Source: an uncultured Chloroflexia bacterium
GTDB taxonomy: Bacteria > Chloroflexota > Limnocylindria > Limnocylindrales > CSP1-4
Direction: 5' to 3'
DNA: 64,000 nucleotides
NCBI GenBank assembly: GCA_963766735.1
Contig: CAVYBU010000006.1
Coordinates: 64,001-128,000, forward strand
Shown here piece after piece: positions 32,105-34,867 of the stretch. The notes below the pieces were generated by a model. That model searched no databases. It was not told the DNA's origin and saw only the letters and a list, made by a program, of their open reading frames with translations. Both the position numbers and the translations under genes were made by a program. Positions within the stretch are counted from its first letter, which is position 1, and every line of letters starts with the position of its first letter.

Positions 32105-34867
32105 ATGACAGAGGTGACCGGAGCAACCGCTGCCGCCGGCGCGACGGCGTGGCACGCCCTGAGCACGGAGGACGCTCTGCAGCAGCAGGGCGTCGACGCC
32201 GACCAGGGATTGTCCTCAGCCGAGGTCACCGCACGCAGGACGAAGTTCGGTGCCAACCGGTTTGCGGAACAGGCCCCCGAGCCGCGCCTGCGCGCCTTCC
32301 TGCGCCAGTACGCCGACGCGATGCAGATCGTCCTGCTGGTCGCCGGCGTGCTGAGCATCTACCCGGTGGGCCAGGTCTCCACCGGGGTGATGCTGATCCT
32401 GCTGACGGTCCTCAACGCCTACCTCGGCCTGAGCCAGGAGGGCAAGGCTGCGGCGGCCGTGGCGGCGCTCCAGAAGATGATGGTCGTCAAGGCGCGGGTG
32501 CGCCGGGACGGCGAGCTGGTGGAGGTGCCGGCCGAGGAGCTCGTCCCGGGAGACATCGTGGCCTTCGAGGCCGGCGATCTCGTCACCGCGGACGGACGGA
32601 TCTTCGCGGCGGCAACCCTGGAGATCGACGAAGCGGCCCTGACCGGCGAAAGCCTGCCCGTCGCCAAGGACGTGAACCCCGTCGCCGCCGATGCGCCGCT
32701 GGGCGACCGGCTCGGCATGGCGTTCATGAACACGAACGTGACCCGTGGCTCGGGGCGCTTCGTCGTGACTGCCACCGGCATGAACACCGAGGTGGGCCAC
32801 ATCTCCGGGATGCTGCAGGTCGACAAGGGACAGGAGACGCCCCTGACGCGGCAGATCAACGCCTTGACCAACCAGCTCCTGATCATCGCCGGCCTCGCCC
32901 TCCTTGCCTCGATCGCGATCGGCTACTTCCGCTACGGCCAGCCATTCGATGTCCTGTTCGTGACGGCCATCGCCTTCGCCGTGTCGGCCATTCCGACGGG
33001 CCTGCCTGCCGTCATCACCACCATCCTCTCGTACGGCACGCAGACGCTCGCGAAGGCCGGCGCCATCGTGAAGCAGTTGCGATCCGTGGAGACCCTTGGA
33101 TCCACTTCGGCGATCAACTCCGACAAGACCGGCACGCTCACCCTCAACCAGATGACGGCCGTCGAGATGGCGATCCCGGGCCGCCGGTTCACCGTCTCCG
33201 GCACCGGCTACGGGATCGAGGGCTCGATCGCGCGCGTCGCGGGTGATGCGGACGTCCCGCTCGACCCGTTCCTCCTCCCGTGCGTCCTGGCCTCCGACGC
33301 CGTCGTCAAGGATGGCGCCTTGATCGGCGACCCGACCGAGGGCGCGCTCGTTGTCCTGGCCGAGAAGGGCGGGGTCAGCGCCATCGCCACGCGAGAGGCC
33401 TACCCGCGGGTCGCAACCCTGCCGTTCGATGCGGCCTACAAGATGATGGCCACCTTCCACCGCATGAAGGACGAGGCGGGCAAGGATGTCGTCCGCTGCT
33501 TCGTCAAGGGTGCCCCCGACCAGCTGCTGGCCCGCGGCACGTTCGTGGTCACGCCGGACCTGTCCGGGGTCCGTCCCGTCGACGACGACATGCGGGCGAG
33601 GATCCTCGCGGAGAACGAGCGCCTCGGGGCCAAGGGACTGCGCGTGATGGCAACCGGGCGCAGGGACTTCGATCCCGCCAGCTTTGATCCCGGTGCCGAT
33701 CTCCTGCCGCTGCTCGACGGGATGACCCTGCTCGCCCTCGTCGGGATCGTGGACCCGCCGCGACCGGCGGCCAGGAAATCGATCGCCGAGGCGCACAGCG
33801 CCGGGATCCAGGTCCGGATGATCACCGGCGATCATGCCGTCACGGCCCAGGCGATCGCACAGGACCTGGGCATCACCGGCCGCGCCATCACCGGCGCAGA
33901 GTTCCGGGCGATGAGCGACGACCAGGCCGTCCGGGAGATCGACGGCATCGGCGTGATAGCGCGAGTGACGCCGGAGGACAAGGTCCACCTGGTCGACATC
34001 CTTCGCAAGAAGGGCCACATCGTGGCGATGACGGGCGACGGCGTGAACGACGCGCCGGCGCTCAAGAAGGCCGACATCGGCGTGGCCATGGGCATCACGG
34101 GTACCGAGGTCTCGAAGGAGGCCGCGGTGATGATCCTCACCGATGACGACTTCGCGACGATCGTGAAGGCAGTCAAGCTGGGTCGCGGGCTCTACGACAA
34201 CCTCAAGAAGTACATCCGCTTCCAGGTCGGGCTCCTGCTCGGCTACATCGTCACGTTCCTGGGCTCCAGCATCCTGAACGTGCTCGGCGGCGTCCCGTTC
34301 GTGCCCATCCAGACGCTGTTCATGAACTTCACCGTCCAGGTCTTCCAGGCGGTCGGCCTCGGCTACGGCAAGGCCGCGGACGGCCTCATGGAGCGCAGGC
34401 CGCGCCCGTCCAGCGAGCCGCTCCTCAGCGGCCCACTCCTCATCTGGCTGGCCGTCGCCGGCCTCGTGATGGGTGGCGGCACGCTGGCCGTCATCGCCTG
34501 GGCCTCGAACGTCTACGACGAGACGGTCGCGCGCACCATGGGGATGATCGCCTTCTCGATCTCGAACGTCGCGTTCTCGTTCGCGACGAAGGACGAGCGG
34601 CGGTCGGTCTTCAGCCTCGACATCATGGGCGACCGGCCGTTCCTCTACGCGACGGCGGCCTCGATCGCGACGATCGTGCTGATGACCGAGTTCGGGTTCT
34701 TCAACCGGCTCCTCGACACGACCAACCTCAACCTCGACCAGTGGGTCGTCTGCATCCTCGTCGGGTTGCTGATCATCCCCGTCTCGGAGATCCGGAAGAT
34801 CGTCATCAAGAAGCCCCTCGACGAGGTTCCGTCCGAGGCTCCCATGGCAGCCGCGTTGGCCGCCTGA
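32105..34867 (+). CDS. P-type ATPase, type II scaffold with atypical ion-binding site (PTGL)
   Basis: [31 protein letters not shown]4 AIPTGLP; RBS AGGAGG before ATG 32105. Confidence 0.92.
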   Translation: MTEVTGATAAAGATAWHALSTEDALQQQGVDADQGLSSAEVTARRTKFGANRFAEQAPEPRLRAFLRQYADAMQIVLLVAGVLSIYPVGQVSTGVMLILLTVLNAYLGLSQEGKAAAAVAALQKMMVVKARVRRDGELVEVPAEELVPGDIVAFEAGDLVTADGRIFAAATLEIDEAALTGESLPVAKDVNPVAADAPLGDRLGMAFMNTNVTRGSGRFVVTATGMNTEVGHISGMLQVDKGQETPLTRQINALTNQLLIIAGLALLASIAIGYFRYGQPFDVLFVTAIAFAVSAIPTGLPAVITTILSYGTQTLAKAGAIVKQLRSVETLGSTSAINSDKTGTLTLNQMTAVEMAIPGRRFTVSGTGYGIEGSIARVAGDADVPLDPFLLPCVLASDAVVKDGALIGDPTEGALVVLAEKGGVSAIATREAYPRVATLPFDAAYKMMATFHRMKDEAGKDVVRCFVKGAPDQLLARGTFVVTPDLSGVRPVDDDMRARILAENERLGAKGLRVMATGRRDFDPASFDPGADLLPLLDGMTLLALVGIVDPPRPAARKSIAEAHSAGIQVRMITGDHAVTAQAIAQDLGITGRAITGAEFRAMSDDQAVREIDGIGVIARVTPEDKVHLVDILRKKGHIVAMTGDGVNDAPALKKADIGVAMGITGTEVSKEAAVMILTDDDFATIVKAVKLGRGLYDNLKKYIRFQVGLLLGYIVTFLGSSILNVLGGVPFVPIQTLFMNFTVQVFQAVGLGYGKAADGLMERRPRPSSEPLLSGPLLIWLAVAGLVMGGGTLAVIAWASNVYDETVARTMGMIAFSISNVAFSFATKDERRSVFSLDIMGDRPFLYATAASIATIVLMTEFGFFNRLLDTTNLNLDQWVVCILVGLLIIPVSEIRKIVIKKPLDEVPSEAPMAAALAA

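Follow-up and report, generated by a model that had tools for sequence, protein, structure and literature searches.

A carboxylate-free clade of P-type ATPases in Chloroflexota and Actinoplanes, derived from Ca2+ pumps and recurrently paired with polyphosphate kinase genes

The DNA analysed here is a stretch of 64,000 nucleotides (nt), hereafter the window, from an uncultured Chloroflexia bacterium (GCA_963766735.1, contig CAVYBU010000006.1, positions 64,001-128,000 of the forward strand). At 32105-34867 on the forward strand, the window encodes a P-type ATPase of 920 amino acids (aa), P0001, which belongs to a clade that we refer to as 'PT[GA]L' after its motif in membrane helix 4 (M4). Judged from the sequences, this clade is real and is more than one odd gene: it is a conserved offshoot of the Ca2+ pumps that is free of carboxylates at the transport site and has a recurrent partner in the polyphosphate kinase PPK2. 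The pump has probably lost its specificity for Ca2+. On balance we also favour a link between the clade and polyphosphate-derived ATP, and we tentatively suggest that its members may be electrogenic monovalent-cation pumps tied to the use of polyphosphate.

Results

A catalytically intact pump with an altered transport site

The gene for P0001 translates without stop codons and lies within a longer open reading frame (ORF; 32054-34867, forward strand), in which the ATG at 32105 was chosen as the start. A ribosome-binding site, AGGAGG, is read directly from the sequence at 32090-32095 on the same strand, 9 nt before this ATG, and the GC content at the three codon positions (0.66/0.46/0.92) follows the pattern of a real gene in this 70% GC window. 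Five P-type ATPase domains were identified with Pfam, including E1-E2_ATPase (2.9e-48), Cation_ATPase_C (6.3e-36) and Cation_ATPase_N (1.3e-17), all five of which also match a second P-type ATPase in the window, the canonical P2A-type paralog P0002 (47327-50011, forward strand). The dephosphorylation motif TGES of the A domain (aa 180-183, 32642-32653), the phosphorylation motif DKTGT with D340 (aa 340-344, 33122-33136) and the hinge and Mg2+ motif GDGVND (aa 644-649, 34034-34051) are all present in P0001 and are invariant across the 51 clade sequences of our alignment A1. With D340 and TGES in place, P0001 should be a catalytically competent P-type pump that passes through a normal phospho-aspartate cycle.

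The membrane part is different. The M4 motif AIPTGLPA (aa 295-302, 32987-33010, with the Pro of PTGL at 32993) has T298 at the position of the canonical gating Glu. The M5 motif YIRFQVGLLLGY (aa 703-714, 34211-34246) has Leu (L711) where canonical pumps have Asn and Tyr (Y714) where they have Glu or Ala, and the M6 motif LFMNFTVQVFQ (aa 738-748, 34316-34348) has kept N741 but has Q745 and Q748 at the positions of the canonical Asp and Pro. There are no charged residues in M3, the M4 core, M6 and M7. An original prediction, made from the DNA alone, had described the protein in these terms, as an intact catalytic core without the canonical cation-binding residues, and is borne out by the motifs and substitutions listed above. 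The paralog P0002, which that prediction had used as an internal control, serves the purpose well, since it has kept PEALP, GNSAE and NLVTDG and is placed with PEAL/NLVTD sequences in our trees.

The same assignment of positions was obtained from a HMMER alignment of P0001 to LMCA1 of Listeria (6zhf, E = 4.3e-146), in which T298 is matched with the M4 Glu (AIPTGL versus AIPEAL), L711 with the Asn of M5, N741 with the conserved Asn of M6 and Q745 with the Asp of M6. N821 of P0001 faces an Arg of LMCA1, which we take to be the residue that fills the missing site I of that pump.

To quantify these differences across the clade, we tabulated residues for the window copy and 68 genome loci whose ATPase ORF is >=850 aa long (69 clade rows in total) and compared them with 123 canonical representatives; 11 loci with short ORFs were left out, as was L075, which has a disrupted M5-M6 region. 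The gating position 298 is Glu in 123/123 canonical sequences, whereas it is Thr in 67 and Ser in 2 of the clade rows. Position 711 in M5 is Leu in 67 and Cys in 2 rows (canonical Asn in 110), and position 714 is Phe, Tyr, Met or Leu (canonical Glu in 96). Within M6, the Asn at 741 has been kept in 69/69 rows (canonical Asn in 121) and position 748 is Gln in 67 (canonical Pro in 99), while position 745, where 100 canonical sequences have Asp, is Asn in 34, Gln in 27, Asp in 6 and Thr in 2, which are all oxygen donors. The best 120 homologs (66-91% identity) in a collection of 5.8 billion proteins gave the same picture for the M4 position, with Thr in 110, Ser in 10 and Glu in 0.

Outside the site itself, position 93 in the M1-M2 loop is Thr in 68 clade rows (canonical Asp in 107) and position 90 in the same loop is Gln in 65 (canonical Glu or Asp in 98). 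Position 755 at the start of the M6-M7 loop is Gly in 66 rows (canonical Glu or Asp in 121), and next to it K756 has been gained in 58/69. Position 692 is Leu in 62 (canonical Glu in 99), and position 821 in M8 is Arg in 36, Asn in 27 and His in 6 (canonical Gln in 81, Glu in 34). Acidic residues have thus vanished at both mouths of the ion path, at the outer one in the M1-M2 loop and at the inner one at the start of the M6-M7 loop. The loop charges are mixed. The net charge shifts from -1.60 in the canonical sequences to +0.16 in the clade for the M1-M2 loop, and from -0.24 to +1.57 for the M6-M7 loop. Other loops have become more acidic, and the outer loops overall have a net charge of -3.1 in the clade versus -3.6 in the canonical pumps. 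The clade has also acquired specific polar residues in M1 (Q74), M2 (T101), M4 (S309), M5 (Q707, N725) and M6 (T737, T743, Q748). One sequence nested in the clade, P0124 (923 aa), has PEEL in M4, with Glu at the gating position, and Ile at the position of the M6 Asp; this is an apparent reversion, unless the row has been misplaced.

Phylogeny and selection

A search of representatives clustered at 50% identity yielded 97,410 relatives. The representative set consisted of P0001, P0002 and the 150 best matches, of which 133 of the 152 rows were used after removal of 19 with lengths outside 780-1300 aa. The clusters nearest to P0001 are non-canonical at M4 (PTGL, PTAL, PEEL, PMAM, PAGL, PSSL), and beyond them follow canonical PEGL...N-x-I-M-D-G-P-P-A sequences of the PMR1/SPCA type. 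A genome scan identified 196 confirmed relatives, and for all neighbourhood counts we used the best 80 loci, 67 of which have full flanks. These loci derive mostly from metagenome-assembled genomes (MAGs) of Chloroflexota (Chloroflexia and Candidatus Limnocylindria), and also from isolates of Actinoplanes and Paractinoplanes.

A FastTree phylogeny of 90 rows placed 76 non-canonical rows in a single group with a support of 100. The clade was also recovered with IQ-TREE in quick mode, with 29 of 43 rows at a Shimodaira-Hasegawa-like approximate likelihood ratio (SH-aLRT) support of 99 and, in a second set, 24 of 36 rows at 100. P0001 shows every feature by which we define the clade, namely P-T/S-G/A-L in M4, Leu at the Asn position of M5, the motif N-F-T-x-[NQDT]-V-F-Q and monophyly. 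The substitutions are therefore those of a well-supported clade, with Thr or Ser at the M4 position in 69/69 rows, and the original prediction, which a lack of conservation in a clade would have refuted, stands on this point. Within the FastTree clade, four subclades could be distinguished: PTGL/Gln with 12 rows (support 100, including the window copy), PTGL/Thr-Gln with 15 (Actinoplanes and others), PTGL/Asp with 5 and PTAL/Asn with 37. Some Chloroflexota assemblies contain two paralogs (L002/L017, L022/L035 on the same contig, and L020/L036), and the members of a pair belong to different subclades (PTGL/Gln and PTAL/Asn).

The clade adjoins PEGL...IMDGPPAM sequences in the trees, which place its origin within the single-site, PMR1/LMCA1-like bacterial Ca2+/Mn2+ pumps. 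Since the members that retain the M6 Asp branch near the base, the topology suggests that the change from Glu to Thr may have come first, to be followed by more than one loss of the Asp.

To estimate the strength of selection, we calculated the ratio of nonsynonymous to synonymous substitutions (dN/dS) for the window gene and 8 close relatives. The values were 0.13-0.26 overall and 0.15-0.36 for the membrane part, indicating that the transport site is being maintained rather than decaying. Together with the invariant catalytic core, these values argue for an active pump, as had been predicted. A loss of transport function, either in a decaying paralog or in an ATPase kept for regulation or sensing, would account for the absence of the canonical ligands, for the canonical paralog in the same window and for genomic contexts that differ among close relatives. 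Such a loss is nevertheless highly improbable given the low dN/dS values (0.13-0.36, membrane part included), clade-specific membrane residues that are invariant or nearly so in sequences only about 60% identical, a full-length gene with a strong ribosome-binding site, and the wide distribution of the clade, with two paralogs in some assemblies.

Polyphosphate genes next to the pump

For the neighbourhood analysis we called the ORFs of the 80 loci ourselves, using a filter on the GC content at third codon positions (GC3), and clustered them, after which the clusters were named with Pfam. A gene for PPK2 (PF03976, E = 3.5e-93) is located within 8 kb of the ATPase in 40/80 loci. Other recurrent families are DUF6325 (21/80), SulP (17/80), LuxR/MalT-like regulators, DUF2252 and DUF6069 (13/80 each, the last upstream of the ATPase and mainly in Actinoplanes), AI-2E (11/80), RDD and DUF1269 (10/80 each), ornithine carbamoyltransferase (9/80), Ppx/GppA and CHAD (8/80 each) and an MFS cluster (7/80). 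PPK2 is the immediate same-strand neighbour of the ATPase in 38/80 loci, downstream in 26 and upstream in 12, and in 8 of these 12 the two genes overlap by 4 bp. At least one of PPK2, PPX and CHAD was present in 48/80 loci (44/67 of those with full flanks), and some loci, such as L017, L065 and L074, contain a same-strand run of ATPase, PPK2, CHAD and SulP. Genes of the arginine-deiminase (ADI) pathway, another ATP-yielding module, were found in 10/80 loci distributed over four subclades (deiminase, carbamoyltransferase, carbamate-kinase-like protein and DcuC-type carrier). Either a polyphosphate or an ADI-pathway gene was present in 52/80 loci.

The PPK2 neighbours fall into two families that are only about 31% identical, one scoring above the cut-off of TIGR03707 (348.7 versus 301.8) and the other above that of TIGR03709 (377.4 versus 247.2). 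TIGR03707 represents the Pseudomonas PA0141 or class I type, and TIGR03709 is presumably the class III group. The 41 PPK2 ORFs in the loci comprise 23 of the TIGR03707 type and 18 of the TIGR03709 type. Among 63 scored rows, class I was located downstream of the ATPase in 17 and upstream in 2, class III upstream in 9 and downstream in 6, and no PPK2 was present in 29. To account for these arrangements, a minimum of 16 changes has to be placed on the tree of the ATPases, which indicates that the pairing of PPK2 and pump has been rebuilt or reshuffled repeatedly and was not simply inherited. According to the available parts of the respective papers, enzymes of both class I and class III phosphorylate ADP from polyphosphate (PMC8776046; PMC11968564), class III enzymes are at least 1000-fold weaker in polyphosphate synthesis (PMC8776046), and PPK2 enzymes depend on Mg2+ or Mn2+ (PMC8776046).

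In an independent protein set, 71 proteins of >=570 aa match the PPK2 of L026, and 20 of the 71 also carry P-type ATPase motifs (among them PTAL, PTGM, PLAL and NFTIQVFQ, plus one PEAL). As far as their sequences go, these long ORFs confirm the adjacency of PPK2 and ATPase and extend it to deeper non-canonical branches. Other members of the same set join PPK2 to SulP, CHAD, RDD, an Na+/H+ exchanger with TrkA domains, or MgtC. Among these are P0321, P0326 and P0287, long ORFs in which a PPK2 domain is joined to an Na+/H+ exchanger (in one case with TrkA domains) or to MgtC, which hints that PPK2 genes sit next to several kinds of cation transport genes, beyond this pump.

The Actinoplanes loci (L039-L071) have a different organization. 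A gene for a DUF6069 four-helix membrane protein is located upstream of the ATPase and one for an RDD protein downstream, on the same strand, with AI-2E, DUF1269, DUF2252 and DUF7144 genes nearby and no PPK2. Among loci with the DUF6069/RDD flank, PPK2 was seen only in an Actinobacteria MAG (L042).

In a literature search we found no paper on a 'PTGL' motif, on a pairing of PPK2 with a P-type ATPase or on an operon of CHAD with an ATPase, although the group may already have a family number. The main text of a paper on the distribution of PPK2 mentions an analysis of neighbouring genes and does not contain the words 'ATPase' or 'transporter'. The ESM Atlas yielded nothing beyond generic clusters of 'cation-translocating P-type ATPase'.

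Structure model and comparison with known families

An AlphaFold2 model built from the 51-sequence alignment had a pLDDT of 69 and a pTM of 0.58, with a poorly modelled A domain and membrane helices mostly at 75-90. In the model, the M4 helix is interrupted at residues 296-299 (I-P-T-G), a break also present in known pumps, and M6 (734-754) is one unbroken helix, in keeping with Q-V-F-Q standing where the D-G-x-P kink would be. Among the fold matches, SPCA1a in the E1 state ranked first (E = 2.6e-43, TM-scores 0.69/0.72), and 47/47 of the fold matches listed were P2-type ion pumps.

P0001 clearly falls within the P-type ATPase superfamily (HAD-IC), scoring 273.6 with TIGR01494 against a cut-off of 62.3 and containing DKTGT, TGES, TGD and GDGxND. 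Every NCBIfam subfamily model, by comparison, gave a score below its cut-off. The best of these was the PMR1/SPCA model TIGR01522 (535.4 versus 798.3); since the canonical paralog P0002 also falls short of it (687.1 versus 798.3), this shortfall alone is weak evidence. The scores were likewise too low for the SERCA type (TIGR01116, 519.2 versus 703.4), with L711, Y714 and N821 at the site-I positions, and for the P3A H+-ATPases (TIGR01647, 380.6 versus 615.5), M6 being without a carboxylate. Of the ligands expected in P2A pumps, P0001 lacks the M4 Glu (T298) and has only the first half of the N-x-x-x-D of M6 (N741 kept, Q745 for Asp).

Among solved relatives, P0001 is most similar to LMCA1 (PDB 6zhf/9euq; 4.3e-146), followed by human SPCA1 (about 5e-133) and SERCA (about 1e-111). 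It shares with LMCA1 and SPCA1/PMR1 the ten-helix P2A architecture and all cytoplasmic motifs. Like these single-site pumps it lacks site I, and the M8 position of that site is non-acidic in both, being Arg in LMCA1 and Arg, Asn or His in the clade. It differs from them in the replacements of the M4 Glu by Thr, the M5 Asn by Leu, the M6 Asp by Gln and the D-G-x-P kink by Q-V-F-Q, and the clade differs in the loss of acidic residues from the loops M1-M2 and M6-M7.

A Pro-Thr at the unwound M4 site is shared with KdpB of Escherichia coli (b0697), the P1A-type K+-transporting subunit of KdpFABC (LIPTTIGG versus AIPTGLPA). BLASTP aligned the two proteins without gaps through M4 (27% identity, E = 3e-31), and KdpB shows that a Thr at the M4 position is compatible with a monovalent-cation site. 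P0001 is not itself a KdpB: the score with TIGR01497 is 133.4 versus a cut-off of 527.9, there are no kdp genes nearby in the window, and the Pro-Thr of M4 is all that is shared. KdpB has 7 helices, depends on KdpA, KdpC and KdpF and is supplied with K+ by a tunnel between the subunits, as described in the accessible part of a review (PMC10654040). Another comparison is with CtpE and family 23 of the actinobacteria, which like P0001 are bacterial type II pumps near the Ca2+ family and for which a substrate was long wanting. CtpE is reported, in the sections available, to be a Ca2+ uptake pump of 791 aa with VPEGL in M4 (PMC5615198). This published description sets P0001 apart (IPTGL and 920 aa versus VPEGL and about 790 aa), and the literature on the family 23/24 (FUPA) pumps does not fit it.

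In the P4 and P5 ATPases, as the original prediction pointed out, replacement of the M4 Glu accompanies a changed substrate class, and in this replacement they resemble the clade. By analogy, a lipid or other bulky polar substrate could be envisaged for P0001, in which the M4 Glu and the M6 Asp have been lost and polar residues specific to the clade have appeared in M1, M2, M4, M5 and M6; a gene for a PAP2 lipid phosphatase (28573-29286, Pfam) is also present in the window. We regard such a substrate as very unlikely. The scores of P0001 are far below the cut-offs of the flippase model (TIGR01652, 50.8 versus 431.25) and the P5 model (TIGR01657, 170.9 versus 618.25), so that it cannot be assigned to either class, and the fold matches listed are without exception P2-type ion pumps. 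Moreover, PAP2 recurs in 0/67 loci, and no recurring candidate gene for an accessory subunit was seen adjoining the ATPase in the Chloroflexota loci.

Discussion

Substrate and energy source

The original prediction held that the pump carries something other than Ca2+, which is reasonable in view of the acids lost from the site and its mouths, and that in the absence of carboxylates this would be a lipid, a neutral solute or an anion. The latter step is not supported as it was put: the I-P-T-G break of M4 has been kept, the residues at 745 are oxygen donors, KdpB shares the Pro-Thr and the outer loops have stayed acidic. We consider an anion, a lipid or a neutral solute less likely than a monovalent cation.

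Backbone carbonyls at the M4 helix break bind cations in known pumps. In P0001 the only remaining site would be formed by the unwound I-P-T-G of M4 together with N741 and Q745 of M6, an architecture that has been kept although every carboxylate has gone. With neutral oxygen ligands alone, the site would not be able to make up for the energy needed to dehydrate Ca2+ or Mn2+ and would not bind either ion with high affinity; sites of this kind bind monovalent cations, an example being the Pro-Thr M4 of KdpB. Because the site holds neutral oxygen ligands only, we propose a monovalent cation (K+, Na+, NH4+ or H3O+) as the cargo, which would be moved with net charge and without counter-transport of protons; the loss of acidic residues at both mouths likewise argues against Ca2+. 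From the neighbouring polyphosphate and arginine-deiminase genes we suggest that the pump is driven by ATP of non-respiratory origin. It would thus be active in cells that subsist on polyphosphate stores or on ATP from arginine, and might hold an ion gradient or membrane potential, or shift the counter-ions that are freed or needed in polyphosphate turnover. The AI-2E/UPF0118 and RDD families include reported Na+(Li+)/H+ antiporters, according to the available text of two papers (PMC5379678, PMC5996927), and the AI-2E and RDD neighbours, along with a TMEM175-type channel in the window, may weakly fit an alkali-cation context.

Several observations weigh against this proposal of a monovalent-cation pump fuelled by polyphosphate. 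We know of no P2-type monovalent-cation pump that lacks all carboxylates. The loss of acidic residues at both mouths, as read from the alignment, is not expected of a cation path, and the structure model is only of moderate quality (pLDDT 69, pTM 0.58). No riboswitch that would name a ligand was found, either in the window or in 8 related loci, in which Rfam identified two tRNAs and nothing else. In KdpB, other charged residues are located near the site, according to the part of the review that was accessible (PMC10654040). With respect to the energy source, 28/80 loci, including most of those from Actinoplanes, have neither polyphosphate nor ADI genes, and the locus counts are not independent events since many loci come from related MAGs. 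The long PPK2-ATPase ORFs, almost all of which are singletons and partial, may have arisen from the merging of adjacent genes and not be genuine fusions. A tblastn search of the full 64-kb window for PPK2, PPX and CHAD found none. Finally, in comparisons of the window with its closest relatives (L001, L002, L031 and L004) the ATPase gene alone aligns and the flanks differ.

Since PPK2, PPX and CHAD are absent from the window, the link to polyphosphate is for the window copy drawn from its relatives; L001, L002 and L004 have PPK2 downstream of the ATPase and L031 does not. A PPK2-linked copy elsewhere in the source genome is possible, given that some assemblies carry two clade paralogs.

A pump for divalent cations (Mg2+, Mn2+ or Ca2+ at low affinity) would hold a partly hydrated ion on amide and hydroxyl groups, and would deliver or take away either the metal cofactor of PPK2 or the metal ions that balance the charge of polyphosphate. 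Such a role would be in line with the descent of the clade from PMR1/LMCA1-like Ca2+/Mn2+ pumps, the M6 Asp of its basal members and the requirement of PPK2 for Mg2+ or Mn2+ (PMC8776046, available text), and homologs are automatically named Ca2+-transporting ATPases, although these are annotation labels only. With the M4 Glu missing in 69/69 rows, the M6 Asp in 63/69, the acidic residues gone from both mouths and a canonical Ca2+-type paralog (47327-50011) retained in the genome, we consider a divalent substrate unlikely.

The more radical alternative is an anion pump, in which an oxyanion, most plausibly orthophosphate, is held by hydrogen-bond donors from Thr, Asn and Gln; this gives a concrete form to the anion option of the original prediction. 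The clade would then be the first P-type lineage to have abandoned cations, loading or unloading polyphosphate stores in an operon with PPK2, PPX, CHAD and SulP. An anion would explain why no carboxylate has been left in place, whether in the site or at either mouth, and it would benefit from the Lys gained at 756 in 58/69 rows, the Arg at the M8 site-I position in 36/69 and the shift of the M6-M7 loop from -0.24 to +1.57. The neighbouring genes for phosphate metabolism and SulP, including the same-strand runs in L017, L065 and L074, and the three SulP genes of the window would also fit. The M4 break has been retained, however, and exposes carbonyls that repel anions, and Asp is tolerated at position 745 in 6/69 clade members and in P0123. 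There is no basic residue in the membrane core that is conserved across the clade, position 821 being Arg, Asn or His, and the outer loops are still net acidic (-3.1 versus -3.6). Nor does the accessible part of the review cited above (PMC10654040), which never uses the word 'anion', provide a precedent. We therefore judge an anion pump improbable, more so than a divalent-cation pump, and the exposed M4 carbonyls, the oxygen donors at 745 and the Pro-Thr of KdpB lead us to favour a monovalent cation. A less radical alternative would be a polyphosphate-fuelled pump to which PPK2 hands ATP directly at the nucleotide domain.

Genes around the pump in the window

Immediately upstream of the pump, separated from it by a gap of 219 nt, is a gene for an AI-2E family transporter (29723-31885, forward strand), to which Pfam assigns two matched stretches of AI-2E_transport (2.5e-79). 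This ORF of 720 aa thus contains two AI-2E modules in tandem, and represents a duplicate that has been fused or else two genes that have been merged. Further upstream are the PAP2 gene, two DUF1269 genes and a gene for a TMEM175-type K+ channel (25861-26604). No regulatory element was identified: a search of the whole window with Rfam at gathering thresholds gave zero matches, a relaxed Rfam search of 31700-32200 for a leader that would name a ligand gave one match at chance level (E = 0.19), and a promoter and terminator scan of 29000-37200 gave zero promoter-like sites and one terminator-like site, which equals the expectation from shuffled sequences.

Just downstream of the pump is a hydrophobic ORF of 113 aa (35076-35417, forward strand, GC3 0.91). 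It was considered as an accessory subunit and rejected, as it has no Pfam family, is dissimilar to DUF6069 and RDD proteins and is conserved solely in L007 (92.6%), a short contig that shares the downstream arrangement of the window. It is followed on the opposite strand by a gene for an anaerobic sulfatase maturase (TIGR03942, 376 versus a cut-off of 349) and on the forward strand by a gene for a SulP-STAS-PASTA protein (37608-40403) and one for an ABC1 atypical kinase (40427-42658) with an N-terminal four-helix membrane domain similar to 'phage holin 4_2'. PASTA repeats are extracellular domains that are typically part of Ser/Thr kinases and penicillin-binding proteins, and their presence at the C-terminus of a SulP-STAS protein is an unusual fusion; the start codon of this gene is uncertain, because its ORF overlaps one at 37018-37800.

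Two more SulP genes were identified with Pfam, one at 15829-17556 and one, of the SulP-STAS type, at 20282-22027 (forward strand). The latter is orthologous to the SulP associated with the clade in other genomes, being 54-71% identical to the SulPs beside related ATPases versus 33-37% for the other two SulPs of the window. With these three SulP genes, a rhodanese, a sulfatase and the sulfatase maturase, the 'sulfur/anion island' in which the original prediction had located the pump is real, but it is mostly incidental to the pump. The sulfatase and the maturase are each present in only 1/67 loci with full flanks and of these three families SulP alone recurs (17/80); the neighbours that dominate among the conserved ones are polyphosphate genes, and these are missing from the window. 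The sulfatase gene itself (22747-25711, reverse strand) is split between two frames, with Pfam positions 1-164 in the ORF at 23156-25711 and 161-301 in that at 22747-24615. The frameshift near 24461-24615 could reflect a pseudogene or an assembly error. The longer frame (23156-25711) also has a DUF1269 match further upstream.

Several families that recur beside the clade are nevertheless present in the window, namely AI-2E, DUF1269, DUF6325, DUF7144, a LuxR regulator and an MFS transporter. The genes for the MFS transporter, the DUF6325 protein and a MalT-like LuxR regulator are located together at 9618-14939 (reverse strand, Pfam), and the MFS gene is 82-84% identical at the nucleotide level to genes adjoining the ATPase in L035.

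Two other regions were observed. A gene for a tandem universal stress protein (Usp; 46058-46972, forward strand) is located directly upstream of the canonical paralog P0002, in an arrangement (46058-50011) that may be akin to the Usp-ctpF pair in the dormancy regulon of mycobacteria. At 55116-59897, genes for a LigD primase-polymerase and an ATP-dependent DNA ligase, a set for non-homologous end joining, flank a gene for an M48 peptidase.

Implications

The substrate class of a P-type ATPase is by textbook practice read from a few membrane residues, and the clade described here is a natural experiment in the rewriting of that specificity. What is new is a widespread offshoot of the Ca2+ pumps, maintained by selection, that has lost the carboxylates of its site and has been paired repeatedly with two different polyphosphate kinases. 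It also points to a possible connection, open to testing, of polyphosphate stores with membrane energisation or ion balance in bacteria that are abundant in soil (Limnocylindria, Actinoplanes), and because cultured Actinoplanes strains carry the pump gene, its study at the bench is feasible.

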